64,000 nucleotides of DNA from Nitrosopumilus sp. (lineage in GTDB: Archaea > Thermoproteota > Nitrososphaeria > Nitrososphaerales > Nitrosopumilaceae): assembly GCA_965207075.1 (NCBI GenBank), contig CBDBLO010000002.1:1312001-1376000 (forward strand), written 5' to 3'. A program made the position numbers and the translations under genes. A model generated the notes under the pieces. It had not been told where the DNA came from. It saw only the letters and a program-made list of their open reading frames with translations, and did not search any database. Below, in pieces: positions 39,965 to 62,194 of the stretch; positions within the stretch are counted from its first letter, which is position 1; each line of letters starts with the position of its first letter.

Positions 39965-40053
39965 CGGGCGCCGCGCCCCGGACCTACCCCCTGATCGGAC
40001 TGCATCTCGAGCGCACCGCCGCTTCCCTGCAGCTCTGGCGCGGCAGGGCCGGC

Positions 40054-40242
40054 TCAGTTGCCCGTCCTGTGCAGCGTGACCATCATATATGCCACCTCGT
40101 CGACGAAGGACTCGTCGTTGCTGGCCGCCGCATACCTTGTGGCGTCGTCCCAGAAACCGCCCCCCCTCTTGGGATCCTCCATGAGTTGACTGCTCATAGC
40201 GCGGACTGGCCGGGTGGATTGATAATGTGCCACCTCAACCAT
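40054..40242 (-). CDS. Possible small hypothetical protein
   Basis: ATG about 22 nt after an AT-rich box; 62 aa; no motif. Confidence 0.35.
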   Translation of the reverse strand: MVEVAHYQSTRPVRAMSSQLMEDPKRGGGFWDDATRYAAASNDESFVDEVAYMMVTLHRTGN

Positions 40243-40418
40243 ATCAAACCTATTGCTCAAATTTTTGAACACTAAACTCCCCGGCATTCCGGCAGCTGCA
40301 TCGGGGGCGCATGCCGCGGCGCACGGGACGGCCGAGGCCCCCGCACGCGAAGGCGTCTGCCTGCAGCATGGCCGCCGCATCACATGCTAAATATTACAAG
40401 ATGGGGGGATGTCACGGC

Positions 40419-41465
40419 ATGAGACTGTCATGCAGCCTCGGCTCGCTGCTGTCCATAAACGAGATCCTGTCGTGCGCCAAGGCGCTGTCGAAAACCGACG
40501 TTGACGCAATCTGGGTGCCGGAGACGTGGGGCATGGAGTCCTTTGCGATGCTGGGCGCGGTGTCCGCCGCCGCGCCGTCGCCGCGCATAGGCTCGTCCAT
40601 TGTAAACGTGTATTCGCGCAGCCCCGCCGCTATCGCAATGGGGGCCGCCACCGTTGACACCCTCTCCGGCGGCAGGCTTCTGCTTGGAATCGGCGCAAGC
40701 AGCCCCGCCATCGTGGAGGGGCTGCACGGCGTGCGATACGAGAGCCCTCTCAAACGCGTGCGCGAGACTGTAGAGGTAGTGCGGCTGGCCACGTCCGGCA
40801 GGCGAGTCGACTACGAGGGCGAGCTGTTCTCGCTGAACGGGTTCAGGCTCCTCGTGAGGCCCGTGCAGGACCGCATTCCGATATACCTGGCCGCCGTCAA
40901 CAGGGGAATGGTCCGGCTTGCATGGGATGTGGGGGACGGCGTAATCTTCTACCTGAGGCCCCTCGACGAGATGAGGCGCACGATACGCGCAATGCACAAA
41001 GAGTCCGGCAGGCGCATCGACGTTGCGTGCCAGCTGATAGCCTGCGTATCGGACGACGACGGCGGGGAGGCCGCGGTGGAAAGGGCAAGGCGCACGATCG
41101 CGTTCTACGTGGCAGTCGGCGACGTTTACAGAAACTTTCTGTCTGCCAACGGGTTTGCAGACGAGGCCGCGTCGATATATGGCGAGTACCGCAGCAGCGG
41201 GCTTGCAGGCGTGCACCGGTACGTGTCCGACGGGATGCTTGACGCGCTTGCCGTGTGCGGCACTCCCAAGTCCTGCAAAAACCGACTTGGCGCGTTCCGG
41301 GACGCTGGATTGGACCTGCCCATACTGCAGTTTAACCCGGTCGGGGACGTGGCGGGATCGTTTGCCCTGTTTGCAGAGACGTTCTTTGGTTACGACGGCG
41401 CCGGCTCGACAAAGCATGATGGTGACGGCAGCCGCGGCGGCGGCGATGGCGGTGGGATGCCATGA
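40419..41465 (+). CDS. LLM-class (probably F420-dependent) oxidoreductase
   Basis: WVPETWG, IVNVYSRSP, LSGGRLLLGIG, IPIYLAA, GDGVI. Confidence 0.88.
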   Translation: MRLSCSLGSLLSINEILSCAKALSKTDVDAIWVPETWGMESFAMLGAVSAAAPSPRIGSSIVNVYSRSPAAIAMGAATVDTLSGGRLLLGIGASSPAIVEGLHGVRYESPLKRVRETVEVVRLATSGRRVDYEGELFSLNGFRLLVRPVQDRIPIYLAAVNRGMVRLAWDVGDGVIFYLRPLDEMRRTIRAMHKESGRRIDVACQLIACVSDDDGGEAAVERARRTIAFYVAVGDVYRNFLSANGFADEAASIYGEYRSSGLAGVHRYVSDGMLDALAVCGTPKSCKNRLGAFRDAGLDLPILQFNPVGDVAGSFALFAETFFGYDGAGSTKHDGDGSRGGGDGGGMP

Positions 41466-42778
41466 GGCGTGCATGCATAGTGGGCTGCGGCACGACAAGG
41501 TTCACAAGCGACACCTCCGAGGCCCTGGAGTCTGTGCTGCTGCGCTCCGTAAAAAATTTGTTCGACTCGACTCCCGAGTGCGACAGGCGCGACGTGGAGG
41601 CTGTAATCGTCTCAAACGCGTCGGGCGGACATACAGGAGCCGAATCAGCAGGCCATGGCAGTTATGGGGGTGACAATAGTGATGGTGATGGAGAGGGCAT
41701 AGATGGCGGTAGTGACAGCCGCCGCCGCGGCCGTCCTGCTAGCGCCGGAAGCCCGCCTGCCCTCGACCGCCATGCGCCCAGGATGGGATCCGGATACATG
41801 GCGCCCATACTTGCGGAACTGGCAGGTATGCGCCCCCGCGCGGCCCATACGGTGGAGAGCCTGTGTAGTTCGGGGACGAACGCCATCGTGTCCGGATACG
41901 CGCACGTCGCGTCCGGGCTTGCCGACGTGGTGCTGGTAAGCGGGGCCGAGATACGCGACACGCCGGGGCGTATACTGTGGTGGGACGACTCGAGGGGTCA
42001 GTTCAAGCACCCCGTATACTGGGCGTCCCTGCTCACGAGCGGCTACAAGAGGGCGTTTGGAGTCTCCGATGACGATCTGGCCGTAGTGCCGGCGCGCGCA
42101 TACGCGAATGCGAGTTCAAACCCTGACGCGCTACGGCCGGAAGCAACTCCGACGGTAAAGGACGTGACAGGCTCAAGGCGCCTGACCGGGGACCTCAGGC
42201 TGCTTGACTGCTCCCGGCCCTGCACGGGAGGGGCGTCGATACTGATTGCATCCGAAGACGCCGCCGGCAGATACACGGACGACCCCGTGTTGATAGCGGG
42301 CGTAGGACAGAGCGTCACGTCGGCCGGGTTTGCCAAGCACTCTGAGCTTTCGCGCATCGAGTCTGCCAGGATGGCGTGCCGCGACGCCCTGCGGATGGCC
42401 GGAAGCAGGAACGGTGGCGCGGCGCGCGGGGGCGGCGCGACCCTGTCGATATCTGATGTGGACGTTGCGGAGATACACGATGCGTTCTCGGTGTGCGAGC
42501 CGATGATACTCGAGGCGCTCGGCATGGCGGAGCCGGGCAGGGGCGCCGCGGCCAGCCGGGAGCTGTACGAGACTGCAAGCCGCCGGGTAAACCCTCGCGG
42601 GGGGCTGATCGGCTCGGGGCATCCGCTGGGGGCGACGGGGCTTGCGCAGGCCGCCGAGGTCGCACGGCAGCTGTGGCGCCAGGCTCGCGGCAGGCAGGCG
42701 GACAGCCCCGAGGTCGGACTGGTCCACAACATGGCGGCCGCCGGTACCTCGTCTACTGCACTGGTGATGGTACGATGA
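41462..42778 (+). CDS. Thiolase-family protein (SCP2/archaeal type)
   Basis: ESLCSSG, EIHDAF, VNPRGGL..GHPLGATG, HNM; ATGA overlaps with both neighbours. Confidence 0.9.
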   Translation: MRRACIVGCGTTRFTSDTSEALESVLLRSVKNLFDSTPECDRRDVEAVIVSNASGGHTGAESAGHGSYGGDNSDGDGEGIDGGSDSRRRGRPASAGSPPALDRHAPRMGSGYMAPILAELAGMRPRAAHTVESLCSSGTNAIVSGYAHVASGLADVVLVSGAEIRDTPGRILWWDDSRGQFKHPVYWASLLTSGYKRAFGVSDDDLAVVPARAYANASSNPDALRPEATPTVKDVTGSRRLTGDLRLLDCSRPCTGGASILIASEDAAGRYTDDPVLIAGVGQSVTSAGFAKHSELSRIESARMACRDALRMAGSRNGGAARGGGATLSISDVDVAEIHDAFSVCEPMILEALGMAEPGRGAAASRELYETASRRVNPRGGLIGSGHPLGATGLAQAAEVARQLWRQARGRQADSPEVGLVHNMAAAGTSSTALVMVR

Positions 42779-43209
42779 GCGCGGTACTCTCTGAGTTTGA
42801 GCAAGCCATTGGGCGCGGGCTGTTCAGGGTGCCCGAATGCACAGAATGCGGCGCGGCCGTATGGCCCCCGTCAGAGTTCTGCAGTGTCTGCCTTGGCGGG
42901 GTCCGGCTTGGATCCGGATACGGCGGCGGCGGTGGCAAGAGGCTGCGGGGCCGCATAGTAGAGTGCAGCATGGAAATACCTGCCGGGCGGCTCGCCGGCG
43001 GCAGCAGCGTTAGGCGCTCGTTCTTTTGTCTGGTTGCATTTGAGTGCGGCATACGGCTGATTGCACGGCTTGTGGCGCCCACGCCGCCGGCGCCTGGCGA
43101 CTTGGTGGTGCTGAGCTCCTGCGGCATGGGCCCAAACGGATCGGGCTACGTATTCGAGGTCTCCGCGCCAGATGCCTCAGAGTACCCTGCAAGCCCGGCG
43201 AATATGTAG
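42775..43209 (+). CDS. DUF35 zinc-ribbon / OB-fold protein
   Basis: CTECG..WPP..FCSVC; translationally coupled to the thiolase. Confidence 0.82.
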   Translation: MSAVLSEFEQAIGRGLFRVPECTECGAAVWPPSEFCSVCLGGVRLGSGYGGGGGKRLRGRIVECSMEIPAGRLAGGSSVRRSFFCLVAFECGIRLIARLVAPTPPAPGDLVVLSSCGMGPNGSGYVFEVSAPDASEYPASPANM

Positions 43210-44036
43210 GGCGTCTCTTTATCCTGATCAAACGTCCAGACAGTCGGAAGGCTTATCACGCGCCTTGCCGACAGTCCGTACTTTGCTATTATGGACTCCC
43301 ACCCTCCCAGGCCGCCCGCTCCCTCTTTTCTCCTCCTTGCTGCGGGGCCGCTGCTGTCCCCCTCGCCTGCAAGTATCACGACGGCCTCCGACATGACGGA
43401 GCCGCCGCAGTCTTTGATCTTTTCAAGTAGTCCCTCAGCCAGCATCTCCCCGCCCATCTGCGGCAGTCCTCCCACGGCAAACGCGGGCCTCGTGATATCC
43501 ATGCCGCCGTAGTCCGCCGCAAGCGCGTCCATGCATACGGGGCCGAAGTCCGTCCCCGTCGAGGCCGCCACCTCCTCTTGAAGTTTGACAAGCGAGTCGT
43601 CTATCTCTATGCTGTGCGCCTTCATTCCAAGCAGGGCGGCGCAAAACGCGATGCGTCCGTCGCCGGACCCGATGTCGACTAGTTCGGTGCAGCCAAACCC
43701 CTTGGCGGCCGCGGCCAGGACGTACGCAGAAGCCAGCCACGTGGGGTAGAACGGCTGGCAGCTTGTCCCGTGCTTTATGCTGCCAAGCCAGTACTCGTTT
43801 ATGTCCCCCTCGTATATGGTGCACTCCGTGCCCGCCAGATCCTGCCGGAACGAGCCGTGGTATATCGGGTTGGACGCGGCAAACCCGTGGAGGGCCCTCA
43901 GGTGAGACTTCTCGATTGGGAATGTCTCATTTGACGGTCTTACGGGAAGCGCCTCCTGTATGTGAGCTCCTCTGGAGTAACTCTTGGACATCTCCCTCTT
44001 TACGAACGTAATCCCATCTGCGATTGTACTGTACAC
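43146..44036 (-). CDS. SAM-dependent methyltransferase-like protein
   Basis: Motif I VDIGSGDGR, SIEID; PFYPT. Confidence 0.75.
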   Translation of the reverse strand: MYSTIADGITFVKREMSKSYSRGAHIQEALPVRPSNETFPIEKSHLRALHGFAASNPIYHGSFRQDLAGTECTIYEGDINEYWLGSIKHGTSCQPFYPTWLASAYVLAAAAKGFGCTELVDIGSGDGRIAFCAALLGMKAHSIEIDDSLVKLQEEVAASTGTDFGPVCMDALAADYGGMDITRPAFAVGGLPQMGGEMLAEGLLEKIKDCGGSVMSEAVVILAGEGDSSGPAARRRKEGAGGLGGWESIIAKYGLSARRVISLPTVWTFDQDKETPYIFAGLAGYSEASGAETSNT

Positions 44037-44559
44037 TGCAGATGCGTAGGGAAGGGCGCTGATAAACGCATTGTGCGGGGCGCGTGCGTGGATGAGGGAG
44101 GGGGGGGGGGGGCGCGTGTGGAGGTAGAGGAAAAAATTAGAAAACAGAGTTTATCCAAGTGACGTCACATCAAAAGTCGGAGATTCCGAGTAACTGGAGG
44201 CCAGACCCGCCAAAGACAGAGCAGATTGTTCGTAAAATGCAAAAGGACGAAAGTAACACGGGGCAGGTCGCCAAGAGTTTCCCGCCCCGATGCACAGCTA
44301 TAGTTAAATTTGTGCCATGCGATGCTGTCACTGGTGTACGGGATGCTTGCAAACCACGGCCGCATTGAGGGAACATCTTTTTGGATGCCCCGGCGGAGCG
44401 CCGTTGCACCACACGTGATAAGCCGGTCTTGGAGCTGGCCGATAAACAGAACAGGTCGCGGCGCCGTTGTTTTTACGGCGCATGGTTTGGGCAGCTCCCG
44501 GGCCAACTGTCCGGCATCTGTCGGCAAATTAAGCGGGCCAAGTTTGATATGGTGAAGGC

Positions 44560-45696
44560 ATGAGGATCCGAATCTTCGACACCACGCTACGAGACGGGGA
44601 GCAGACAGTCGGGATATCACTGACCCCTGATCAAAAACTCGAAATCGCAAAAAGACTTGACGCGCTGGGGGTGGACGTAATCGAGGCCGGCTTTCCGACG
44701 ACGTCAGAGGGCGAGCGGCAAGCGGCAAGGATGATAACAGACGAAGGACTGTCGTCTGAAATCTGCGGAATGACAAGGGCCAACAAAAGGGACATCGACG
44801 TTGCCGCCGACACGGGGCTGAGTTACATCAACACCTTTGTTGCGACCTCGGACATTCACCTAAAACACAACCGTGAAATGACCAAGGCCCAGGCGATTGA
44901 ACAGGCAGTCGAGGCAGTCGAGTATGCAAAGTCCAGGGGTTTGAAGGTGGAGTTCGGGGCAGTGGACGCGACAAGAACCGAGAGGGGGTTCTTGAGGGAC
45001 ATACTTGGCGAGGTCGCAAAGGCAGGGGCCTATACAGTTACCATTCCGGACACTACCGGATGCGCCACCCCGGAGTACATGGCCGAACTCACGCGCGACG
45101 CCGTATCCGCCGCGGCCGGCACCCCGGTAAGCGTTCACTGTCACAACGACTTTGGGCTGGCGGTGGCAAATACGCTGTCCGGAATCAGGGCCGGGGCCTT
45201 TTGCGCGCAAGTGACGATCAACGGGATCGGGGAGAGGGCCGGGAACGCGTCACTAGAGGAGCTTGCAATGGCGCTAAAGTGCCTCCGGTATGATCAAAAG
45301 TACGAGACGGGGATAAAGTCCGAACGGATCTATGACACGTCAAGGTTCATATCCAAAGTCATGGGAATACGGGTGCAGCCAAACAAGGCGGTCGTAGGCG
45401 ACAACGCGTTTAGCCACGAGGATGAGATTCACACCGATGCCATGCTGGACAATCAGATGACATACGAGCCGTTCAGTCCCGAACTAGTGGGGCGAAAGCA
45501 CCAGATCTACGTGGGGAAGCACACCGGAGTCCTGGGACTGAACGCCGCCCTGGGCAACTACGGCATCAGACCGACAGAGGGACAGTCAAGGCGGATCCTA
45601 GACCGGGTCAAGGCGTCGGCCGACCAGGGAGCGAGGATTACCGACGCGCAGATGTTGCTGATCACGCGCGAGGTCCTTGGTGAAGAGCGAGACTAG
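44560..45696 (+). CDS. 2-isopropylmalate synthase-like DRE-TIM enzyme, divergent, lacking the C-terminal regulatory domain
   Basis: [34 protein letters not shown]; 378 aa; non-canonical YINTF, EFGAVD, HEDEIH. Confidence 0.88.
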
Positions 45697-46023
45697 CGAC
45701 GGCCACGCGTCAGGGCGACCTCGACAAAAGGACACCGCCCAGAGGGCGGGCCTGCCGGTCTTGTGATGCAGATGATCGATTTTGCCGTTGCTGCTGCCGC
45801 TGGGACAGGCCGCGCATTATTCCTGTGATCTGCAATAAGGGGCCAGTCCTGTGTCCGTTTGGCACGGTACGCGTTTTATTGGCGGGGCTTGGGGAAGATC
45901 AGCAATGACACGCTTGCGTCCGCACCTGCACAGAAAGGCGCCGACGAGACGACGCGGAGCGCGGTCACTAGTGTGCCGCCACACATTAACATCTATTTAA
46001 GCAGCACATCCGTAACGCCCATC

Positions 46024-46938
46024 ATGAAGGAATCCCGCAAGATATGGATGGACGGCCGCCTGGTGCCGTTCCAGGACGCAAAGGTGCACGTCTTGACGCA
46101 CGCGCTGCACTACTCCACGGCGGTATTTGACGGCATCAGGTACTACAACACGCGCGAAGGCCCCGCAATATTCAGGCTTGAGGATCACGTAGAGAGGCTG
46201 TTCCGCTCGGCCAAGATATACTCTATGAAGATCAGATATACCAGACGGCAGGTCCGCGATGCCATAATCGATACGGTGCGCGCGTGCGGGCTCAAGGAGG
46301 GTTACATACGCCCCCTGGCATACTACGGGTACGGCGAGACGGGCCTCACGCCTACGAGGAACAAGGTTGATCTCTCCATATCGTGCTGGCCCTGGAAGAT
46401 GGGCGAATCGAAGGCCGGCAAGTTTTCCGGTGCACGACGCATGGTGTCAAGCTGGGTCAGGATAGACCCCAGGGCCCAGCCCATACAGGCAAAGGTGGCC
46501 GCCAACTATTCTAGTGCCGCGCTCGCAAGGATCGAGGCGTCTGAGAACGGGTACGACGAGGCCATCATACTGAACACAGACGGCAGGGTGGCAGAGGGCT
46601 GCGTCGAGAACATATTCGTATGCAGGGACGGCTCGATACTGACGCCGCCGCTCTCGACTGGGTGCCTGGACGGCATCACGAGGGACAGCGTGACGCGAAT
46701 AGCAGAGGCAGACGGGATGGATGTCGCAGAGTACGACTTGTACAGGGACGACCTGTATGTCGCGGACGAGGTGTTCATGACAGGCACGGTCGCAGAGATA
46801 AGGTCGGTCACGCAGGTGGACAGGGCCAGAATTGGAACAGGACGCATGGGCCGAATTACAAAAGGACTGCAAAAGTCGTTTGCAGATGTCGTAGCGGGCA
46901 GGGACGGCAGGTTCAGGCAGTGGCTGACTGTCATCTGA
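46024..46938 (+). CDS. ilvE: Branched-chain amino acid aminotransferase (fold type IV), divergent
   Basis: LHYS..FDGIR, FRLEDHVERL, YIRP, AK..ANY, EG..ENIF, LDGITR, EVFMTGT. Confidence 0.88.
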   Translation: MKESRKIWMDGRLVPFQDAKVHVLTHALHYSTAVFDGIRYYNTREGPAIFRLEDHVERLFRSAKIYSMKIRYTRRQVRDAIIDTVRACGLKEGYIRPLAYYGYGETGLTPTRNKVDLSISCWPWKMGESKAGKFSGARRMVSSWVRIDPRAQPIQAKVAANYSSAALARIEASENGYDEAIILNTDGRVAEGCVENIFVCRDGSILTPPLSTGCLDGITRDSVTRIAEADGMDVAEYDLYRDDLYVADEVFMTGTVAEIRSVTQVDRARIGTGRMGRITKGLQKSFADVVAGRDGRFRQWLTVI

Positions 46939-47164
46939 CAGGTATAGCGCCTAGCATGTGACGGCCTCGGCCTGCAGCCGGCGAATCGCCATCCCACGGC
47001 GCCACGGCTTGGAGGCATGGCCGACTTACGTCCCGCCTGCGGGTCAGTCGGACGGACTGCGCCGTGTCGCAGGGCCGCACCCCCTTGGCGGAGCGGATTG
47101 GGGAATCGCGCAGCACGCCACATCTGACATAACGCTAATATTGCTTCCTTCCTACACTGTACCA

Positions 47165-49777
47165 TTGGCCAGCCGCCCATTATTCTTGTTACTTGCACTT
47201 TCTCTAATTGCAGCCGGGGCGTCCGGGGCGGCGTATGCCGACATGGACAACCCATCGCCCGCAAAACAGGTTGCAAAAGGCACGGCGCCAGAGGACGTCG
47301 CATGCAACGGCGAGCGCGTACTGATGCTCAAGGCAAACGGTGATCCGATCTGCGCACTCCCCTCGTCGGTGGACCGCCTGGCCGCCATGGAATTTGCGAC
47401 CATAGTTGAGGCTGCCTCAATAGACATGGAGGCGGCGGAGCCCGAAGACGTCGAGATGGCGTCCCCCGAGGATGCGGCAGAACCGGAGTCCGCCCTTGTG
47501 GTGTCGATGACCATGTTTAGCGACCGATTTGCCGTTATGAAGGAGGATGTCAGGACCTTGGTTGCCGAGTCCATCGAAGCGTACGAGTCGGACGGCGAAG
47601 GCGCACTTGATGCAATAACCGCGGGCGCAGAGACGTACGATGCAGAATCGCCGTATGTGTTTGTAATCGACTACGACACGCTGACCATACTTGCGCACGG
47701 ATTCAATACCACCCTGGTCGGCACCATGTCGAGCGCGCTAGACGACGGCGAAAAGACGTACGACGAGATCAAGGCCGAGCTTGACGAGGACGGCGAGACT
47801 TGGGTCATGTATCCGTTTACAAACCCCGCAACCGAGAAGATGCAGACTAAAAAGTCGTACCTCGCGCTGCACGGCAGCCACATATTTGCCAGTGGATTCT
47901 ACCTCAATGATCTTGAAGCCGAGATGATCGTAGCAATGTGGGTTGCAAACTCGGCGGCCGGATTGTACGACGAGCACGGGACCGACTCGTTTGGCATGAT
48001 AACTGATGCCGCCGAGGACTACGTGCCGGGAGGCACCTATCCGTTTGCCGTCGACATTGAAGCCGGGGTGGTGGTGGCGCACGGTGCCGACGCGGCCCGC
48101 GTGGGCGACGTGTCCGTGTCCGTTACAGACTCGAACAAGCCCCTTGAACTGATCCGGGCAGAGTCCGAACTCAACGGCGGCGCCTGGGTGACGTACACGT
48201 TTACGAACTTTGAGACTCAGGCAGAGGAGATAAAGCTCTCCTGGCTTGTGATACGCGACGGCTACGCGTTCGGGGCGGGATTCTACCCCGACGAATTCCA
48301 GACGAAAAAGATCAACGCCATCATGTCTACTGACAACGCCCTTGCGATGTATGCCGAGGGCGGGCAGGACGCCTTTGCCGAGATTACGGCCCTCAACGTC
48401 GAGGAGGAGTGGTATCCGTTTGTAATGGACTCGGAGGCAAACACGGAGCTCGCAGACGGTTCCATACTAGACCGGACAGGCCAGAAGATCTGGGAGCCGT
48501 ACCAGATGAGCGCGGCCATCCGGGACTCCAGGGGCGCGTTTGACGAGGGACAGGGGGTGTTCGGAAAGTACGTGTTCTTGAACCCCGAGACCGGCGAGGA
48601 GCAGGCCAAAAAGGCATGGTTCATCATGCACGACGGCTACATATTCGGAGCCGGGTTCTACCTGACAGGCGAGTACGCCGAGAAGACAGAGGTTATGTGG
48701 TCCGTGGGCACCACTGTCGAGATGTACAAGGAGCTTGGAATGGACGCGACGTTTGCGGCCGTAGACGCAATGAACACGGACTATCCGTCGTACCCGTTCG
48801 TGCTTGACGACATGCTTGTAATCGCGGCGCACGGCGCGAACACGGATATTGTCGGGGGATACCTGTTTGATATAGTCACTCCGGACAAGGACGCGGAGCA
48901 GATAATGGAGGAGCTGGCAGGCGACGGGGCCCGAACGTGGATAACCTATACGTTTGTGAACCCCGAGACCGGCGAGGACGCCGAGAAGGTCACGCTGCTT
49001 GAGATGCACGACGGCTACATATTCGCAGCCGGCTACTATATGGATCCCGAACCGCCGGTAGCGGAGGTCTCATTTGACGACGCGGAGCAGGCCTGGCTTG
49101 AGGATCATCCGGTGATAACGGTCGCGTATGACCCTGCATGGCCCCCGTACGAGTACGTGGATGACGAGGGAAGCCTTGCCGGGGTGTCCGGAGCCATTGC
49201 AGACGCGCTCGAGGGCATGACCGGCTCCCAGTTCGCGGAGGCGGATCCCGTAATTGAATCTTGGAACGATGCGCTCGACCGCATGAAAGACGGAACGGCC
49301 GACGTTCTGTTCGTGGTCGAGAACACTGCCGAGAGGGACGAATACATGGACTTTACGGAGCCGTGGATAACAATACCAATCTCTATAATCACGCTTGAGG
49401 AGAACGCTGATGTCATAACGTCCGAGAACCTTGCAGAATACAGGGTGGTGACGGTGGACGGCTATGCCGTGGAGACCTGGCTGGATGAGAACATGCCTGA
49501 CGTGGCGTACGAGTCTGCCGACTCCGCACAGGCGGCGCTGACCATGGTATCAGACGACAGCGCCGATGCATTTTTGGACGTGTGGGAAGTTGCAAGATAC
49601 ATTGCGGCCAGTAACGGCATCGAGAACCTGGCAGAAGCGGGTACGATTGCCGACGAGTACACGCTGTCGGTAGGATACACGGAGGGCGACGACACGCTTG
49701 GCGGCATACTGCAAAAGATGCTCGACGCCATGTCCAAAGGCGAGATTGAGCGCATCGTAAACGAGGCCGTCTCGTAG
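47165..49777 (+). CDS. Secreted protein: Cys-pair N-domain, four single Cache domains, C-terminal family-3 solute-binding domain
   Basis: TTG start with signal peptide ending AYA; SPAKQ..C..C motif; four Y.F..D...A(H/D)G...Y.F.N..T....K......G..F..G.Y repeats; BvgS-like EQAWLEDHPVITVAYDPAWPPYEY; no internal or C-terminal TM. Confidence 0.82.
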   Translation: MASRPLFLLLALSLIAAGASGAAYADMDNPSPAKQVAKGTAPEDVACNGERVLMLKANGDPICALPSSVDRLAAMEFATIVEAASIDMEAAEPEDVEMASPEDAAEPESALVVSMTMFSDRFAVMKEDVRTLVAESIEAYESDGEGALDAITAGAETYDAESPYVFVIDYDTLTILAHGFNTTLVGTMSSALDDGEKTYDEIKAELDEDGETWVMYPFTNPATEKMQTKKSYLALHGSHIFASGFYLNDLEAEMIVAMWVANSAAGLYDEHGTDSFGMITDAAEDYVPGGTYPFAVDIEAGVVVAHGADAARVGDVSVSVTDSNKPLELIRAESELNGGAWVTYTFTNFETQAEEIKLSWLVIRDGYAFGAGFYPDEFQTKKINAIMSTDNALAMYAEGGQDAFAEITALNVEEEWYPFVMDSEANTELADGSILDRTGQKIWEPYQMSAAIRDSRGAFDEGQGVFGKYVFLNPETGEEQAKKAWFIMHDGYIFGAGFYLTGEYAEKTEVMWSVGTTVEMYKELGMDATFAAVDAMNTDYPSYPFVLDDMLVIAAHGANTDIVGGYLFDIVTPDKDAEQIMEELAGDGARTWITYTFVNPETGEDAEKVTLLEMHDGYIFAAGYYMDPEPPVAEVSFDDAEQAWLEDHPVITVAYDPAWPPYEYVDDEGSLAGVSGAIADALEGMTGSQFAEADPVIESWNDALDRMKDGTADVLFVVENTAERDEYMDFTEPWITIPISIITLEENADVITSENLAEYRVVTVDGYAVETWLDENMPDVAYESADSAQAALTMVSDDSADAFLDVWEVARYIAASNGIENLAEAGTIADEYTLSVGYTEGDDTLGGILQKMLDAMSKGEIERIVNEAVS

Positions 49778-49886
49778 AACACGCGTCGGCTACGGCGGCA
49801 CCTAGATGCTTTGCAACCTGCATCCCAAACGCGGCTTCCTTTTTGGTGCGGGCGCCGCCGTACTGCAGTCCGGCCCGCCGCCACAG

Positions 49887-50636
49887 CTAGTTGCCGCGAT
49901 ACCATGGATCGTATCCGAGCCTATCGAGGAAGTGCTCCCACGACTTGAACTCTCTTTTGTAGTCTGATATGGCAAACCGCGAGTGTTCCAGCATGTCCTG
50001 CGGCGTCGGAACCCTGCCCGCCTTGGCCCTTGCCATCTCAAAGTCCGCTATCAGAGATATCTTGTTGGGCTCGCTGCCGACGGCGTGCCTCACCACCTCG
50101 CCAAACCCTGCGTCAAACTCCGTCGCGATGTCCGATGCGGTCCACCCGTGCCGCAGAGGAAAGCCCTCGGCCAGATTTTCGGGATCATGGCCCATGCGGG
50201 CCATGAGCGCGCCGAGCTCCTTGAGCATCAGGGCACGTTTTTTGTTAAAGTAAGACAGGTCTATGCGCGGATGCTCCTCCTCCTCTTTGTCACCTCCCGC
50301 CCACAAGGACGCGCCTCTGGGGCCCCTGCCTGCCCCCCTCATCCCGAACTCGTCCGTGGCGGTCATGGAGCCTGCGTCATAAGCGTTGCTCCGCAGCTTT
50401 GACTTGTACACTATGTTCCTTGGATTGCGCCTGACCCTGTAGTTGCAGCAGTTGCAGAACCATCCCTTCGAGCCCGCCGTGGCGGGCCTGCCACCAAATA
50501 GGTGCGCCCCCTGGTGGTCTATCCACATGTCACACGTCTGGCACCTTGCCTGCCCCGCCACGTACCTTCCCCCGGCCGCAGGCTTCTTTACGCCGTAGTT
50601 TTTGCACGTGCCGTCGCAGATGCGCTTGAGGGCCAC
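49887..50636 (-). CDS. Zinc-finger protein with a C-terminal homing-endonuclease-associated (HNH_repeat-like) module
   Basis: CDGTC, CQTC, CNCC; GRVPTPQDM......SDYKREFKSW..FL..LG. Confidence 0.65.
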   Translation of the reverse strand: MALKRICDGTCKNYGVKKPAAGGRYVAGQARCQTCDMWIDHQGAHLFGGRPATAGSKGWFCNCCNYRVRRNPRNIVYKSKLRSNAYDAGSMTATDEFGMRGAGRGPRGASLWAGGDKEEEEHPRIDLSYFNKKRALMLKELGALMARMGHDPENLAEGFPLRHGWTASDIATEFDAGFGEVVRHAVGSEPNKISLIADFEMARAKAGRVPTPQDMLEHSRFAISDYKREFKSWEHFLDRLGYDPWYRGN

Positions 50637-50807
50637 GGCATGTATGGGCGCGCGAGATATAACCGTTTTTCGTAGGCGCGACTTTAAATTTGATCATCGG
50701 CCCCCACCCCTCCGGAATGCCCGCAGCCTGACCGCGCTGTAACTCGGACCGCGCTGTCCACGCCGCAATCAGAACAAGATATAACCGCCGTACGGGGAGT
50801 GGCTGGC

Positions 50808-55387: not shown

Positions 55388-56182
55388 TCACCGCATTCCG
55401 AGGTACAGCCGTCCAAGCTCCCGGTGCGCCAGCAGCTCCTCCGGGGTCCCGTCAAAGACGTTCTTGCCGTTTGCCAAAAGGTACACAGAGTCCCCCAACC
55501 TCAGTGCACGCCTGACGTTCTGCTCCACCAGAATCACGGAGATGCCAAACTCGTCCCTCAGCTGTCTTATCTTTGAGAGGACCTCCAAGGCGAGCTTGGG
55601 CGACAGGCTGGCAGTCGGCTCATCAAACAGCATGACGGTGGGCCTCCTGATGAGCGCCATGCCCATCGCGAGCATCTGCCGCTCCCCGCCGCTGAGCGTC
55701 TGCGCCTTTGAATCCTCGTACGTCCTCAGTATGGGGAACGTCTCTAGTATCTCAGGCACCCTCTCTGCGAACTCTCTTGCATCCAGTGTGTACGCGGCCA
55801 TGACAAGGTTCTCCCTGATCGTGAGGTTGGCAAAGACGTTGTTGACCTGCGGCAGGTATGCTATCTTCTCCCTTGCTATCTCGTGCGGCGTGAGCTCGGT
55901 GATCGGTCTGTCATGGAACCTTATCTGCCCCCCGTATATGGTGCACAGCCCGAATATGCTCTTTAGTAACGTGCTCTTGCCGCTCCCATTGGGCCCGACT
56001 ATGACGGTGATCTCTTGCTCCATTGCCTCAAAGTGCACGTCAAAAAGTATGTGGCTGCTTGCGTAGCCGGAGCTCAGGGTGCTGACCCTGATGATGGGGC
56101 TGTCGTCGCCATCCTCCTTGACGGCGCCTCCCCTGTTGGCGCCTGTGCTGATGCCACCGGCAGTCTCGCCCATCCTACTCAC
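55388..56182 (-). CDS. livF: Branched-chain amino acid ABC transporter ATPase
   Basis: GPNGSGKST, LSGGERQMLAMG, FDEPT, LVEQN. Confidence 0.92.
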   Translation of the reverse strand: MSRMGETAGGISTGANRGGAVKEDGDDSPIIRVSTLSSGYASSHILFDVHFEAMEQEITVIVGPNGSGKSTLLKSIFGLCTIYGGQIRFHDRPITELTPHEIAREKIAYLPQVNNVFANLTIRENLVMAAYTLDAREFAERVPEILETFPILRTYEDSKAQTLSGGERQMLAMGMALIRRPTVMLFDEPTASLSPKLALEVLSKIRQLRDEFGISVILVEQNVRRALRLGDSVYLLANGKNVFDGTPEELLAHRELGRLYLGMR

Positions 56183-56936
56183 CTAGGTACGACTCCACGA
56201 CCTTTGGATCCTTTGTGACCTCATCCGGGTCGTCCTCCGCGATGATCTTGCCCCTGTTGAGTACAAAGACGCGCTCTGCATACTGCAGTGAGATGTCCAG
56301 CCTGTGCTCGATTATCAGAAACGTGATCTTTTGCTCCCTGCAGATCCTCTTGATCCTCTCAAAGATCTCGTGCGCCAGGGTGGGGTTCACCCCTGCGATG
56401 GGTTCGTCCATCAGGATCATCTTGGTGTCTGCCATCATGGCCCTGCCGAGCTCTAGCAGCTTCTGCTGCCCTCCGCTGAGGTTCCTGCTCCAGACGACCC
56501 CCTGCCCGGTCAGGTTTACCATCTCCATAATCTCCGATGCCTTGTCCGTCGCCCTCTCCTCGTCATGCCTCCATCTTGACCTTGTCGGGGCCGCAAGGAA
56601 TCCCTCGCCGCGGTTTTCGCCGCTTGACACCAGAAAGTTCTCCTCCGTCGTAAGGTTCCTAAACGGCTGCGGTATCTGCCACGTCCTGACCAGCCCCGTC
56701 TTGAAGGTGTCGAACAGCCCCCTCTGCGTGATGTCGGTCCCGTCAAATGTGACGCTGCCCGCGTCCGGCTTCATGAGCCCGGAGATCACGTTTATCAGCG
56801 TGGTCTTGCCGCTCCCGTTGGGCCCGATCATCTGGTATATCCTGCCCGCTTCCATCCCCATGTCTATTCCGTCAAGGACGACCATGCCCCCGAATTGTTT
56901 TCGGATACCGGAGAGTGACAGGATCATTGCCATCAC
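56175..56936 (-). CDS. livG: Branched-chain amino acid ABC transporter ATPase
   Basis: GPNGSGKTT, RTWQ, LSGGQQKLLE, MDEPIAG, IEH, YLG. Confidence 0.92.
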   Translation of the reverse strand: MMAMILSLSGIRKQFGGMVVLDGIDMGMEAGRIYQMIGPNGSGKTTLINVISGLMKPDAGSVTFDGTDITQRGLFDTFKTGLVRTWQIPQPFRNLTTEENFLVSSGENRGEGFLAAPTRSRWRHDEERATDKASEIMEMVNLTGQGVVWSRNLSGGQQKLLELGRAMMADTKMILMDEPIAGVNPTLAHEIFERIKRICREQKITFLIIEHRLDISLQYAERVFVLNRGKIIAEDDPDEVTKDPKVVESYLGE

Positions 56937-57254
56937 ATCTGGGAGGCCGCTGCATGATTAAGGGTTTCTGCAATGGCCAAGACGTCGCGGGGCCGCCTAG
57001 TTGGTAGACTGACCCCTCGGGTGGGAGGTGGGGAGGGGAGCGGGGAAGGGAGGGGGCGGTGGTGACGGGGTTTCCGGGACATGTGCGTGCAAATGGATGC
57101 CGCGTCAGACCTTGCGATATGTAGATTAACTCTGAGTTTCCCCCTACCGGAGATGAGCCGATCATTTGCAGCAGGCAAGCCCGCGGGCCACACATGCACC
57201 CGAACCGGCGGCGCCGGGAGAGAGGCAGGGCAGCCCGCGTAACGGAGACATGAA

Positions 57255-58193
57255 TTGGCTCTCGACCCAATATTCTCTGATGCAGTCATATTTGCAAGCC
57301 TCCTGTCTCTCTTGAGCATAGGCCTGACGCTCACGTACCTCACCACGCGCGTCCCGAACTTTGCGCACGCCTCCTTTGCCACGATCGGCGTCTACATGGC
57401 GCTTGTCGCGACCCACGTCTGGGGGGTCACCCCGTACGCCTCGATCCCGGTCGCGTTCGTGGTGTCCGGGCTGGTCGCCGTCTCGTTGTATGTCTTCATA
57501 CTAAAGCCTCTGATACGGAAGGGAGCCTCGCAGGCGATCCTGATGATCGCCACACTTGCCTTTGACCTGATACTGATCGCGGGTCTGAACATCTTCGCGG
57601 ACTTTGTGGTACAGACGTTCAGGATCGCATCAAGGGAGTTTACGCTGCGCAGCTACGACGCCGAACTGGCGGGCCTTCCGATGGTAGTCTTCGTGGCGCC
57701 CGCCGCCATAGCCGTCCTGTCGCTGACGTTGTATGTAGTGCTGAAGAAGACAAAGTTTGGCATCGCGATGCGGGCCGCCACCGAGAACCAGGACCTCTCA
57801 GAGACCGTGGGGATCAACGTAAATCTAATCTACGTCGTCTCCTGGATGCTGGGGGGCGGGCTTGCGGGGGTGGCGGGCGCGCTCATGTCCCTGTGGTTCC
57901 AGGGAGATCCGAACCTGGGCCCGCTGATGATCCCAAGCGTCTTTGCCGCTAGCATCGCGGGGGGCTTTCTGAGCATCTACGGTGCGATTGCAGGAGGCTT
58001 GCTGCTTGGGCTTACGGAAGTTCTGGGAACCAGGTTTCTCGCCGGCGAGTTTGGCTCCTGGCTCATCGCGTACCGTCCGCTCATCCCGCTTGCGTTCATC
58101 GTGGTGACCCTGATGCTGGCGCCCCGGGGGATGGCAGGAATTGACTGGTCGAGGCTGGGAAGGAGAGTGAGGAGGCATGGTTCTGGAGACTGA
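57255..58193 (+). CDS. livH: Branched-chain amino acid ABC transporter permease
   Basis: GLTLTY...NFAH, TKFGIAMRA, PRG. Confidence 0.9.
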   Translation: MALDPIFSDAVIFASLLSLLSIGLTLTYLTTRVPNFAHASFATIGVYMALVATHVWGVTPYASIPVAFVVSGLVAVSLYVFILKPLIRKGASQAILMIATLAFDLILIAGLNIFADFVVQTFRIASREFTLRSYDAELAGLPMVVFVAPAAIAVLSLTLYVVLKKTKFGIAMRAATENQDLSETVGINVNLIYVVSWMLGGGLAGVAGALMSLWFQGDPNLGPLMIPSVFAASIAGGFLSIYGAIAGGLLLGLTEVLGTRFLAGEFGSWLIAYRPLIPLAFIVVTLMLAPRGMAGIDWSRLGRRVRRHGSGD

Positions 58194-59256
58194 AGCCATA
58201 TTCCTCATAGACCTGCTTGCAATATTCGCGGTCTACGTGATCGTCAACCTGAGCCTGAACATGGAGTTCGGGTATACAGGGATCCCGAACTTTGGCAAGG
58301 TGCTGGCAGTCGGGGCAGGGGCGTTCGTCGCCGCGTCGGTTCCCGGCAGGATATTCGCAGCCATGGCGGGCATCGAAGGGGACTACGTACTCGACAACCT
58401 CGCCATCGTCTCCCAAGTTAACGCATGGCTGGTGGACAACACGGGAATCGGGTTTGCCATCTTCTTCCTGACGCTGGGAGTAGCTGCCGCCGTGGGAGGG
58501 GGGCTGGGAATTCTCACGTCATATCCTGCGATACGCATGCGCGGCGACTACCTTGCCATCACGCTGCTGGCGTTTGGCGAGAGCATCCGCATAATCGGCA
58601 ACAACTTCACCCCGCTCGTGGGCGGGACGCTGGGAGTCCAGCTGCCGGACCCGCTGTCCTTCCTTCCCGACGAGATCCGCTTCTCGGTGGCCACGCTGGG
58701 ACTGGTTCTCATTGCGGCTGCCGTCTTTGTCTTTAGCGAGAAGATGATCCGCTCGCCGCTTGGAAGGCTACTTCGGGCCGTCCGCGACAACGAGGTCGCT
58801 GCGGAGTCCCTAGGAAAGGACACGGCGCGGATCAGGATGAAGGTGATCATGATCTCGGCCGCGCTCGCCGCGGTGGGCGGCGCGCTATACGCATTCTACG
58901 TGGGCGGCGCCATTGCGTTTGCATACGACAGGGCGAGCTGGACGTTCTGGCCGTTCCTCATGATTCTGATAGGCGGGCTTGCAAACAACAAGGGGGTCCT
59001 GTTCGGCACACTGATCTTCGTCACCGTGCGAAAGCTCATCATCTTCTTCAAGGACTCCTTTGAGGGACTGGTCCCCTTTGACATCATCTGGCTTGATTTT
59101 CTGCTACTGGGCGTGATACTGCTGGTGATACTGCTGTACCGCCCGCAGGGGCTGTTTGTGGAAAAGCCTACCGCGACGATTGGGAGAGGGGCGGGACGCG
59201 TCAGAAAGGATCGGGGCGGGGCAGGAAGAAGGCTGTTTGACTTTCTCTTCAGGTAG
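58177..59256 (+). CDS. livM: Branched-chain amino acid ABC transporter permease
   Basis: LNMEFGYTG..NFG, RMRGDYLAITLLAFGE, SPLGRLLRAVRDNE, RPQGL. Confidence 0.92.
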   Translation: MVLETEAIFLIDLLAIFAVYVIVNLSLNMEFGYTGIPNFGKVLAVGAGAFVAASVPGRIFAAMAGIEGDYVLDNLAIVSQVNAWLVDNTGIGFAIFFLTLGVAAAVGGGLGILTSYPAIRMRGDYLAITLLAFGESIRIIGNNFTPLVGGTLGVQLPDPLSFLPDEIRFSVATLGLVLIAAAVFVFSEKMIRSPLGRLLRAVRDNEVAAESLGKDTARIRMKVIMISAALAAVGGALYAFYVGGAIAFAYDRASWTFWPFLMILIGGLANNKGVLFGTLIFVTVRKLIIFFKDSFEGLVPFDIIWLDFLLLGVILLVILLYRPQGLFVEKPTATIGRGAGRVRKDRGGAGRRLFDFLFR

Positions 59257-59725
59257 GTCGTGCAGGCCCGGCCCATCCGTATGCGCCATCCCTCCCCCCC
59301 CCCCCGCCTAGCGACCTCTGGCAGGAACCACGACTCACCGGCATTCCGGGAGATGCTCGGGGGGATTCCGGACGGCGACGGGTACGTCGTGACGGACGCG
59401 TCGTATCCTATCAAAAGGAGGTGCCATATGATCGCGTACAGCAGAAGAGCCGGCTCCCCCCCCCACCCCCCAAGTGCATCTGTTGCAACCTCTCGTCTTA
59501 TCCCTGCGCGCTCCTTTCCCCGCGAACACATCACGTGGGCGCTGTAGATGGGTTTCGGATTTTGAGGCTGGGCCGACGGAACTGCCCGCCATGATCAGAA
59601 TTTTCCGGGCTTTCGACGGCTTGACCGCGTCTGCACCCGTTGAAACGTCCGCAACAATCACCAGAATATCGCCGAGTTGGACGCGCCAGATTGTGCCAAG
59701 CATTTAAGAACTATGCATCGCAGGT

Positions 59726-62194
59726 ATGATATTGGACTCAAAGAAGGGAGCCGCGATCGGGGTTGGCATAGCCGTGGTAATTGCCGCCGCCGTGGCGGCA
59801 GGCATTATGGGTTCGGCGCCCGTGGACGAGGCAGATGATCAGGTAGCTCCGGATGACGAAGGCGTGCCGGAGGCGCCGGCCGTTGAGGAGACGGTAGTGG
59901 AAGGAGGAGACGGACTCTCAGGCGACGTTACGATAGGGCTGATCCTGCCGCTCACGGGGGACCTGGCGCACAAGGGTCACGAGAACTGGGAGGGCTCAAA
60001 GTTCGGGCTGCAGCAGTTCAACAAGTACCTCGAGGAGAGGGGCGAGCCGTGGCAGCTCAGGATGGTCTCAGAAGACTCTGCGACCAACCCGGTCGTGGCG
60101 CTCGAGAAGCTCACCTCGCTCAAGGCAAAGGGGATCGACATCGTGGTCGGCCCCGAGACGAGTTCCAACATACGAAACATCAAGGGCTATGCGGACTCAA
60201 ACAACATGCTGCTGTTCAGCTGCTGCTCAACTGCGCCTGCGCTCTCGATCGCAGGCGACAGCGTCTACCGCTTGGTTCCAAACGACACGTTTCAGGGCAC
60301 GGCAATCGCAAAGAAGATACAGCACGACGGCGCCCAGGTTCTGGTCCCGATGTGGAGGGGAGACGCATGGGGCGACGGGCTCACGGAGGCCACGGTAAAG
60401 TCCATTGAGGAGCGCGGCCTTGCGGTGGCAGAGGGGGTGAGGTACAACCCCGAGTCCCCCGAGTTCTCCGCGTCCGTGTCGCTACTGGCCGCACAGGTGC
60501 AGGAGCTGGCAGAGGACTACGAGACGGATGAGATAGCAGTCGCGATATTTGGCTTTGGCGAGACGGTGAACGTGGTGCAGGCTGCGGCGCAGCACGACAT
60601 ACTTGACGACGTCAGGTGGTACGGCGGAGATTCCAACGTAAAGGAGATCGGGTTCATAGAGGATCCGATAGCATCCGAGTTTGCAGACAAGGTGCAGTTT
60701 ACCGCCAGCCAGTTCTCGATATCAGAGAACGAGGTTACAGAACAGATCGATGAGCACGTGCTAGAGGCCCTGGGACGTGAGGGATACGCCTACATCAACA
60801 CGTCCCACGACGTGGTGTGGCTCCTCGGGCTCTCCATACTGGAGGCGCAGAGCACGGACGTGGACGCGGTAAAGGCCGTACTTCCGGAGGTGGCCTCCAA
60901 GTACTCGGGCGCCCTTGACTCGGTAGACCTGAATGAGGCCGGGGACCTCAGCGGCGCGGACTATGGGGTCTGGAGTATAATAGACAACGAATGGGTGCTT
61001 GCCGACGTGTATGACTTTGAGACTGACTCCATAGTAGACCCGGCCGCCGACGCGTCCGAACTCTCAGGCGACGTTACGATAGGGCTGATCCTGCCGCTCA
61101 CGGGGGACCTGGCGCACAAGGGTCACGAGAACTGGGAGGGCTCAAAGTTCGGGCTGCAGCAGTTCAACAAGTACCTCGAGGAGAGGGGCGAGCCGTGGCA
61201 GCTCAGGATGGTCTCAGAAGACTCTGCGACCAACCCGGTCGTGGCGCTCGAGAAGCTCACCTCGCTCAAGGCAAAGGGGATCGACATCGTGGTCGGCCCC
61301 GAGACGAGCGCCAGTATACGAAACGTCAAGGGCTATTCGGACTCAAACAACATGCTGCTGTTCAGCTGCTGCTCCAGCGCGCCAGGACTTGCGATCGCAG
61401 GCGACAGCGTCTACCGCTTGGTTCCAAACGACACGCTGCAGGGCACGGCAATCGCAAAGAAGATACAGCATGACGGCGCCCAGGTTCTGGTCCCGATGTG
61501 GAGGGGAGACGCATGGGGCGACGGGCTCACGGAGGCCACGGTAAAGTCCATTGAGGAGCGCGGCCTTGCGGTGGCAGAGGGGGTGAGGTACAACCCCGAG
61601 TCCCCCGAGTTCTCCGCGTCCGTGTCGCTACTGGCCGCACAGGTGCAGGAGCTGGCAGAGGACTACGAGATGAATGAAATAGCAGTCTCTATATTCGGCT
61701 TTGGCGAGACGGTAAACGCGGCCCAGACCGCATCCCAGTACGACATACTCGGTGACGTCAGGTGGTACGGCGGGGCATCCAACGTAAAGGAGATCGGGTT
61801 CATAGAGGATCCGATAGCATCCGAGTTTGCAAACAAGGTACGGTATACTTCCAGCCAGTTCTCAATATCGGAAAACGAGATCACCAAAAAGATAGACGCC
61901 CACGTGCTAGAGGCCCTGGGACGTGAGGGATACGCCTACATCAACACGTCCCACGACGTGGTGTGGCTCCTCGGGCTCTCCATACTGGAGGCGCAGAGCA
62001 CGGACGTGGACGCGGTAAAGGCCGTACTTCCGGAGGTAGCCTCCAAGTACTCGGGCGCCCTTGACTCGGTAGACCTGAATGAGGCCGGCGACCTCGGCGC
62101 CGCGGATTATAGGATCTGGAGCGTCATAGACAACGAGTGGGTGATTGCCGACGTGTATGACTTTGAGACTGACTCCATAGTGCCCCCGGCCTGA
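59726..62194 (+). CDS. livK: Membrane-anchored ABC substrate-binding protein with two tandem LivK/LivJ-type domains
   Basis: N-terminal TM; two copies of IGLILPLTG...VVGP..S...CS(T/S)AP...YRLVPND...DAWG. Confidence 0.88.
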   Translation: MILDSKKGAAIGVGIAVVIAAAVAAGIMGSAPVDEADDQVAPDDEGVPEAPAVEETVVEGGDGLSGDVTIGLILPLTGDLAHKGHENWEGSKFGLQQFNKYLEERGEPWQLRMVSEDSATNPVVALEKLTSLKAKGIDIVVGPETSSNIRNIKGYADSNNMLLFSCCSTAPALSIAGDSVYRLVPNDTFQGTAIAKKIQHDGAQVLVPMWRGDAWGDGLTEATVKSIEERGLAVAEGVRYNPESPEFSASVSLLAAQVQELAEDYETDEIAVAIFGFGETVNVVQAAAQHDILDDVRWYGGDSNVKEIGFIEDPIASEFADKVQFTASQFSISENEVTEQIDEHVLEALGREGYAYINTSHDVVWLLGLSILEAQSTDVDAVKAVLPEVASKYSGALDSVDLNEAGDLSGADYGVWSIIDNEWVLADVYDFETDSIVDPAADASELSGDVTIGLILPLTGDLAHKGHENWEGSKFGLQQFNKYLEERGEPWQLRMVSEDSATNPVVALEKLTSLKAKGIDIVVGPETSASIRNVKGYSDSNNMLLFSCCSSAPGLAIAGDSVYRLVPNDTLQGTAIAKKIQHDGAQVLVPMWRGDAWGDGLTEATVKSIEERGLAVAEGVRYNPESPEFSASVSLLAAQVQELAEDYEMNEIAVSIFGFGETVNAAQTASQYDILGDVRWYGGASNVKEIGFIEDPIASEFANKVRYTSSQFSISENEITKKIDAHVLEALGREGYAYINTSHDVVWLLGLSILEAQSTDVDAVKAVLPEVASKYSGALDSVDLNEAGDLGAADYRIWSVIDNEWVIADVYDFETDSIVPPA
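59914..62181 (+). repeat. Intragenic direct repeat with 1146-bp period (59914-61035 vs 61060-62181)
   Basis: Long identical nucleotide blocks separated by divergent patches. Confidence 0.95.

Follow-up and report, generated by a model that had tools for sequence, protein, structure and literature searches.

The short LeuA-type gene and its genome

The stretch of DNA analyzed here (the window, 64 kb of contig CBDBLO010000002.1 of the Nitrosopumilus sp. assembly GCA_965207075.1, G000:C2:1312001-1376000 in our coordinates) carries at 44560..45696 on the forward strand a short paralog of leuA, the gene for 2-isopropylmalate synthase (IPMS). Its 378-aa open reading frame (ORF) has the HMGL-like and HCS_D2 domains and no regulatory domain. 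It is followed on the same strand by BCAT2 (46024..46938), an extra IlvE copy coding for a 304-aa class IV branched-chain aminotransferase. An earlier note, made from the sequence alone, had seen in these two genes a possible amino-acid homologation module. As its residues suggest, the short paralog probably serves a product other than leucine. The genome to which the window belongs (G000) has 2.23 Mb, a G+C content of 60% and an archaeal amoA gene.

In the Pfam scan the short protein matched HMGL-like (PF00682) over residues 2-264 (275.5 bits) and HCS_D2 (PF22617) over residues 278-357 (70.3 bits), and LeuA_dimer (PF08502) was absent from it. No remnant of the LeuA C-terminal domain was detected in the window by tblastn at E <= 0.01, the only hits being intergenic noise at E >= 0.18. 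The translation contains all the motifs that the earlier note had quoted, i.e., LRDGEQ, HCHND, GERAGN, YINTF, EFGAVD, TVTIPDT and HEDEIH. The nearest solved structures are the IPMS 3rmj (E 3.9e-82) and the plant methylthioalkylmalate (MAM) synthase 6e1j (E 2.4e-74), and the fold is settled through sequence identity to the solved IPMS. The best NCBIfam model was TIGR02090, the archaeal subfamily of LeuA, CimA and homocitrate synthase (HCS), with a score of 470.4 versus a cut-off of 484.75. All the IPMS models were also below their cut-offs (NF002085 463.6/517, NF041069 443.2/600, NF002086 413.7/532 and TIGR00973 375.3/598.7), as were those for CimA (TIGR00977 195.8/450 and NF042433 174.4/950) and HCS (TIGR02146 310.1/413.55 and TIGR02660 333/462.9). 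A TATA-box-like element of the archaeal type (AAATTAAG, 44526..44533, forward strand) is predicted about 30 bases 5' of the ATG, and an Rfam scan of positions 40000-52000 of the window gave zero matches.

Three HMGL-like genes were found in G000: the short gene, a full-length LeuA and an HCS-like gene that adjoins an ArgD/LysJ-type aminotransferase. The full-length LeuA, a 571-aa ORF with the motifs YVHTF, EFSAED, IDIPDT and HESGIH, is flanked by an IlvB-like gene and LeuB. Since the genome also has these two other copies, and since few genomes carry the short one, the latter is an accessory third paralog and not a housekeeping gene; a canonical IlvE is likewise present elsewhere in the genome. 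After CLSHGT the host canonical LeuA (L001, G000:C2:1581615-1585340) carries a Gly-rich insertion of 12 residues that the other LeuA aligned lack, and its ORF is also extended far upstream. As the earlier note had stated, leuB, leuC and leuD are not adjacent to the short gene, and none of them was found within the window. LeuB lies beside LeuA (G000:C2:1580676; the genome has two Iso_dh loci), and there are three aconitase-family loci, a tandem pair and one long aconitase, at C2:952606-955834 and C2:675110. No dedicated extra copies of LeuCD or LeuB were found in G000, so any homologation must borrow those of the housekeeping pathway.

Substitutions in the pocket

We compared 14 sequences of the short family with 46 LeuA of Nitrososphaerota and outgroups, taking as diagnostic the columns fixed in at least 13 of the 14 and unlike at least 90% of the 46. 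Fifteen of the 378 positions are of this kind: L71M, H91N, I94V, K104N, R109K, S133G, E135V, F149L, V166T, Y168C, H217Q, G285S, S288D, H293D and L300M. The motif differences are fixed in 13-14 of the 14 short sequences versus 42-46 of the 46 LeuA, and are not due to chance. At position 161 the short family has Thr, where LeuA has Asp or Asn, position 91 is Asn with Val in one member, and position 289 is Glu (Arg or Lys in three members) where LeuA has Gly. The pocket and catalytic-site residues of the short protein are M71, N91, G133, V135, T161, D288, E289 and D293. In the alignment with E. coli K-12 LeuA, M71, N91, G133 and V135 correspond to L73, H97, S139 and E141, and T161, P163, H291 and Y302 to N167, P169, H300 and Y311. 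The catalytic frame (R11, D12, Q15, T165, H193, H195, H291 and Y302) is invariant in the short family, and corresponds to Arg89, Asp90, Gln93, Thr257, His288, His290, His388 and Tyr399 of BjMAMS (6e1j alignment; available text of PMC11532901).

Several of the changed sites are known from enzymes that elongate other substrates. According to the accessible part of PMC6603273, AtIPMS has His, Asn, Pro and Ser at positions 186, 257, 259 and 290, where AtMAM1 has Leu, Thr, Gly and Ala, and Gly229 stands at the place of an IPMS Ser in all MAMs. E. coli LeuA with the changes S139G, N167A, H97A and P169A plus the feedback-resistant G462D elongates larger keto acids (PMC3370425, as far as its available text goes). 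In the sections at hand of PMC12961565, a Leu, a Glu, a Ser, an Asn and a second Glu of IPMS are given as substrate-selecting in HphA, HCS and IPMS; these positions are M71, E131, G133, T161 and E225 in the short protein. MAM synthases and engineered LeuA are indeed altered at the His, Ser and Asn pocket sites singled out in the earlier note. Judging by the alignments, four pocket positions have changed together with the loss of the feedback domain, and the Ser to Gly change is identical in MAM and in engineered LeuA. Some of the background on pocket residues reportedly goes back to Koon in 2004, Zhang in 2008, de Kraker and Gershenzon in 2011 and Marcheschi in 2012.

Phylogeny and selection

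A tree of 60 rows recovered the short family as monophyletic (SH-aLRT 100), with a long stem that measures 0.46 changes per site. The clade is nested in Nitrosopumilus-type LeuA, beside P0012, P0020 and P0022 (96), and the LeuA of the host falls in a separate clade. However, a tree joining the short family to the host-clade LeuA was not rejected by the approximately unbiased (AU) test (difference in log-likelihood 24.6, p 0.122), so that the gene may have originated either by duplication or by transfer.

The ratios of nonsynonymous to synonymous substitution rates (dN/dS) for the short gene were 0.084, 0.171, 0.099 and 0.091 in four genome pairs (pairwise NG86, dS 0.14-0.53), compared with 0.08-0.11 for canonical LeuA and 0.14-0.42 for four neighboring genes. 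These values (0.08-0.17) are far from the ratio near 1 that the earlier note had named as a sign of decay, and indicate that the short gene is under purifying selection and, in its intact copies, is being maintained and not decaying. G469 is a genome of about 42% G+C (judged from a 20-kb locus); its copy differs from the window copy by a dN of 0.13 with saturated dS, and has a G+C at third codon positions of 0.33 versus 0.71. Therefore, the constraint has held in lineages whose base composition differs strongly.

The neighboring aminotransferase

The ORF of BCAT2 called mechanically (45859-46938, 359 aa) opens at a TTG, and homology begins only at the ATG at 46024, so that the product probably has 304 and not 359 residues. 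A TATA-box-like element (TATTTAAG, 45993..46000, forward strand) predicted about 27 bases 5' of this ATG suggests that BCAT2 has its own promoter, across a 327-base spacer from the short gene. The class IV aminotransferase motifs FDGIR, EGCVEN and GTVAE are present as described before, but the gene can hardly be called very divergent, since it is 80% identical to the IlvE of the host and is above the NCBIfam IlvE equivalog cut-offs (NF005146 376.6/279 and TIGR01122 351.8/245.55). There are three class IV aminotransferases in G000, compared with two in a typical genome of the genus (IlvE, 63-69% identity, and another at ca. 37%). Ten changes are fixed in BCAT2 at sites invariant in eight IlvE (G5R, S33A, E36D, C40Y, A158V, N164S, M182I, S193C, A194V and A256V), and most of them fall within the motifs FEGIR, QAKA, NYSN, EGSAEN and GTAAE, which we take to line the pyridoxal phosphate and substrate site. 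The dN/dS of BCAT2 was 0.10-0.12 (pairwise NG86).

The pairing of a LeuA domain with an aminotransferase is used in other lineages, as there is a natural fusion (P0262, 684 aa, in a single one-member cluster) of a regulator-less LeuA catalytic domain and a class IV aminotransferase. In P0147 a LeuA-type catalytic domain, also regulator-less, is fused to an aconitase domain. Six further 50%-identity clusters (P0156, P0159, P0190, P0203, P0204 and P0219, 827-865 aa) combine an N-terminal UbiA prenyltransferase with a regulator-less LeuA-like domain, an architecture that is not familiar to us.

Distribution and gene order

At a threshold of E <= 1e-178 an intact short gene was found in six of the 151 genomes of the genus, namely G000, G436 (97% identity), G100 (94%), G058 (92%), G118 (91%) and G469 (78%), and the other 145 show no intact copy. 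In a sample of the whole family it was present in 5 of 401 genomes, confined to one of 27 genera. In a large protein collection the short family comprised 11 full-length 90%-identity clusters and one fragment, 97-78% identical and all without PF08502; the next matches were full-length LeuA at <=72%, some of them labeled at source as Nitrosopumilus or Nitrosarchaeum. None of the five genomes that hold L071, L075, L079, L066 and L047 gave a second, short-type match, each having only its full-length LeuA. A scan of metagenome contigs with generic patterns from the short-family alignment found no member of the family (best match 67%). In addition, contigs labeled "sponge metagenome" from four runs of four studies cover the region with 80-99% likeness, one of them spanning the short gene and BCAT2. 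The carriers of the short paralog are a few sponge-associated ammonia-oxidizing archaea.

Both G000 and G436 have the order F420-type LLM oxidoreductase, thiolase, DUF35, methyltransferase-like gene (reverse strand), short gene, BCAT2 and a Cache/substrate-binding protein (SBP) gene. The order in G058 is the same with an interrupted BCAT2, in G118 the Cache/SBP gene comes directly after the short gene, and in G100 the short gene and BCAT2 lie at contig ends. The context in G469 is wholly different: its neighbors (a FeoB-like gene, a flavin oxidoreductase, a PALP enzyme, ThiS-ThiF and a methyltransferase) have none in common with the window, and its sole close IlvE (73%) is 8.7 kb away.

Among the flanking genes, the one at 43146-44036 (reverse strand) codes for a 296-aa protein with a GxGxG motif like that for S-adenosylmethionine binding and no Pfam or NCBIfam match. 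By its Atlas features it groups with "Methyltransferase type 11" clusters and looks like a class I methyltransferase, and since this type occurs across Nitrososphaerota we have kept the gene out of the module. The 523-base divergent spacer between it and the short gene includes a long G run (44097-44112), at which one sponge-metagenome contig terminates in a G-rich loose end. Downstream, 46958-49777 (forward strand) codes for a 939-aa protein with WING-49 and Cache matches (sCache_2/dCache_2, residues about 215-323), a C-terminal SBP_bac_3 amino-acid-binding domain and no recognizable output domain. Its identity among relatives is 66-93%, indicating fast divergence, and a Cache protein also adjoins the pseudogene of the short gene in G077 described below. 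Just past this block there are an HNH_repeat (homing-endonuclease-associated) protein (49887-50636, reverse strand) and a Hjc-like resolvase-fold protein (50799-51485, forward strand). The stretch from 44 to 50 kb has 57-59% G+C versus 62-64% on either side, and both the lower G+C and these two genes may be traces of mobility.

A possibly linked feature is the LIV-type branched-chain amino acid ABC (ATP-binding cassette) transporter at 55388..62194. It includes a LivG-like ATPase (56175-56936, reverse strand), an adjacent ORF (55388-56182, reverse strand), the permeases (57255-59256) and an 822-aa binding protein with a double Peripla_BP_6 domain (59726-62194). It is located ca. 8-15 kb downstream of the short gene in the window and in G118, and roughly 530 kb off in G436. 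LIV-type permeases were found in 52 of the 151 genomes of the genus, including all seven that carry the short gene, intact or as a pseudogene; these seven amount to only about three independent lineages. There is a second LIV-type cluster at G000:C2:2029566-2036521, and the genome has 13 Peripla_BP_6 matches; a 1245-aa ORF outside the window has three tandem copies of this domain.

Proposed function and its alternatives

We think, with a probability of about 0.5, that the short protein is a feedback-free synthase acting on a 2-oxo acid larger than 2-oxoisovalerate, with the help of the housekeeping LeuCD and LeuB and with an optional aminotransferase. On this view it is a neofunctionalized paralog of Nitrosopumilus LeuA. 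It has lost the leucine-binding regulatory domain and retains the catalytic His-Tyr pair along with the site for the metal and the 2-oxo acid. Its pocket is altered at the sites that set chain length in plant MAM synthases and in the engineered E. coli enzyme (L73 to M, H97 to N, with V in a single member, S139 to G, and N167 or Asp to T). The enzyme would condense acetyl-CoA with the larger 2-oxo acid free of leucine feedback, the product would go to the housekeeping LeuCD and LeuB, because dedicated copies are absent, and amination would be carried out by IlvE, or by BCAT2 where present. The source 2-oxo acids might even derive from branched-chain amino acids imported by the LIV transporter. 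A more specific version is a "+1" elongation of sponge symbionts, in which branched-chain amino acids from the host, imported by LIV, would be deaminated by IlvE or BCAT2 and the keto acids elongated by the short protein, with LeuCD and LeuB serving each round. The products would either be re-aminated, giving a non-proteinogenic amino acid (homoleucine or homoisoleucine, for example), or remain longer keto acids, to be used in the symbiosis. This version we regard as doubtful, if attractive.

Several observations weigh against the larger-substrate synthase. The first concerns catalysis. The general base of BjMAMS2A is probably His388, on which Tyr399 stacks, and Tyr399 is in turn held by Glu227; the mutants E227A and E227D had no activity, and that with E227Q had a 22- to 37-fold lower efficiency (PMC11532901, in the text available). 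By alignment His388 is the second His of HESGIH, and the conserved Glu (E141 in E. coli) is Val135 in all 14 short sequences. This replacement in EFSAED (EFGAVD), passed over by the earlier note, raises a real question on catalysis. Among 150 diverse relatives (50%-identity representatives of the wider family) position 135 is Glu in 134, Met in 12, Leu, Tyr and Val in one each and a gap in one; position 288 is Ser in 105 and Ala in 41 and never Asp; and position 289 is Gly in 146 and Glu in one. With the sites 288 and 289 beside the catalytic His changed as well, the chemistry may differ. The alignments also name no particular substrate, and an AlphaFold2 model from an 18-row alignment (mean pLDDT, the predicted local confidence score, of 62.6, with residues 218-323 below 50) was too poor for pocket geometry.

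Other points concern the genomic evidence. An intact BCAT2 adjoins the short gene in only three of the six genomes with an intact short gene; that of G058 has a TAG at a Trp codon, and BCAT2 was not found in G118 (a genome 89% complete) or in G469. The partner is then dispensable, and the obligate two-gene module of the earlier note has to be given up, BCAT2 being a recent, specialized but dispensable IlvE duplicate. Finally, the short copy of G077 is a pseudogene, 93-94% identical over residues 1-252 and then interrupted by two frameshifts and a TAG. It lies within a patch of 48-53% G+C in a locus of ca. 41% G+C (L037, G077:C1:726000-740000, about 6500-8500), as if the gene had passed recently from one co-resident lineage to another and had decayed since. 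After it comes a long low-complexity repeat with ORFs that read poly-Leu, poly-Ala and poly-Cys.

The missing Glu has to be seen together with two other points. A non-acidic residue at 135 is by itself no proof of inactivity, because the Met-bearing P0155 passes the NCBIfam IPMS equivalog cut-offs (670.9/532 and 626.4/598.7). In addition, the combination of Val135 with Asp288-Glu289 is, as far as the aligned sequences tell, peculiar to the short family, and Asp288 or Glu289 could replace the lost Glu carboxylate.

As an alternative, the short protein could be a feedback-insensitive IPMS that still works on 2-oxoisovalerate (or ketoisovalerate, KIV) and that, with the extra IlvE, would provide the first and last leucine-specific steps. 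The flux from valine or KIV to leucine would then continue when imported leucine stops the canonical LeuA, or leucine would be overproduced. The clean loss of the regulatory domain, the true LeuA as nearest relatives, the LIV-type permeases in 7/7 carrier genomes versus 52/151 in the genus and the closeness of the LIV transporter in the window and G118 are all in line with it. However, five pocket sites that are invariant or nearly so in the 46 LeuA have changed and then been fixed, while the loss of feedback alone needs none of these changes. The short protein is also below every NCBIfam IPMS cut-off, and the LIV cluster is far from the short gene in G436. We consider this explanation unlikely, if still worth keeping in mind.

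A change of chemistry seems to us improbable. The enzyme might use another acyl-CoA or a cationic or unusual 2-oxo acid, or might be a lyase or aldolase instead of an acetyl-CoA Claisen synthase. Val135 is fixed precisely where Glu positions the Tyr-His pair, the mutants E227A and E227D of the plant enzyme are inactive (PMC11532901, same text), and D288, E289 and D293 form a new acidic cluster on the catalytic helix, with Asp288 and Glu289 essentially unique among the 150 relatives. Besides, lyases and aldolases also belong to the DRE-TIM superfamily and give weak matches with the short protein. On the other hand, the remaining Claisen-synthase residues and the HCS_D2 subdomain are retained, some natural proteins resembling IPMS have Met in place of this Glu, and nothing points positively to any particular alternative reaction.

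It is very improbable that the gene is a non-functional or decaying duplicate, as could be proposed from the G077 pseudogene, from the interrupted or missing BCAT2 of G058 and G118 and from the loss of the catalytic-site Glu, given the dN/dS of 0.08-0.17, the frames that are intact in six genomes and in 11 protein clusters whose identity goes as low as 78%, and the G469 copy recoded to low G+C with a dN of 0.13. The identity as an ordinary CimA or HCS ortholog, to which the HCS-typical length and the partial scores to HCS and CimA models would point, is ruled out by phylogeny and distribution, with scores under all cut-offs, a position nested inside Nitrosopumilus LeuA, a separate HCS-like gene in the same genome and 145 of the 151 genomes of the genus without an intact copy at E <= 1e-178. 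Of the homologation proposed in the earlier note there remains a neofunctionalized, feedback-free LeuA paralog, without the fixed pair; a larger substrate is what its residues would suggest, and a non-proteinogenic amino acid may be made.

Comparison with known systems

The Nitrosopumilaceae LeuA (NF002085/TIGR02090 type), inside which the short clade nests, share with the short protein the HMGL-like and HCS_D2 domains (63-72% identity), the metal ligands, the Arg, Gln and Thr and the catalytic His and Tyr. The short gene differs by the lack of LeuA_dimer, the 15 fixed substitutions, the patchy accessory distribution and the sub-cut-off scores. Plant MAM synthases (6E1J) are also derived from LeuA, have also lost the regulatory domain and have also changed the His, Ser and Asn sites. 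Site by site, the Ser to Gly change is identical, Asn to Thr is as in AtMAM1, and the His is replaced in both (as far as the MAM sources consulted describe these sites). However, the short gene has an independent archaeal origin inside the Nitrosopumilaceae LeuA, and the resemblance is convergent. In the same sources, MAM still has Glu227 and, just ahead of the catalytic His, Ser-Gly, where the short protein has Val and Asp-Glu; MAM alters Pro259 and Ser290, both of which the short protein keeps.

The engineered E. coli LeuA (G462D plus S139G, N167A, H97A and P169A, as listed in the accessible text on it) shares three of its four pocket sites (H97, S139 and N167) and the removal of feedback. 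The short protein, on the contrary, is natural, has Asn (or Val), Gly and Thr at H97, S139 and N167, keeps P169 and has lost feedback by deletion of a domain. Synthases of the HphA/HtyA type, likened here by their description in the part of the source available, share the LeuA-like start of a one-carbon homologation, the transaminase end and the substrate-selecting sites. The clusters of HphA and HtyA carry their own isomerase and dehydrogenase genes, whereas no such genes lie beside the short gene and there are no extra copies in the genome. Lastly, the archaeal IPMS without regulatory domain (NF041069, IPMS_Sufob) is similar in length and domain set, but the short protein scores 443.2 against its cut-off of 600 and belongs to another lineage.

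The recruitment of LeuA to chain elongation has taken place repeatedly, as in MAM, HphA, HtyA and AksA. Chain elongation derived from LeuA is of a known kind, while no archaeal case with a catalytic site rebuilt in this way seems to have been described; the literature searched (isopropylmalate synthase in sponge-symbiont Thaumarchaeota) gave no description of this paralog. If the proposed function is true, it would be an independent archaeal recruitment of LeuA that used the residue changes that engineers picked to widen its pocket, and the short protein would provide a template from nature for enzymes that elongate keto acids. That a conserved catalytic-site Glu has been lost along with apparently compensating changes is a question that enzymology can test. 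Ammonia-oxidizing archaea are usually seen as metabolically minimal chemolithoautotrophs. In a few sponge-associated members of this group the short paralog would represent the convergent archaeal counterpart of the MAM chain elongation of plants, with a catalytic site rebuilt by the replacement of Glu by Val and an Asp-Glu pair on the His helix.

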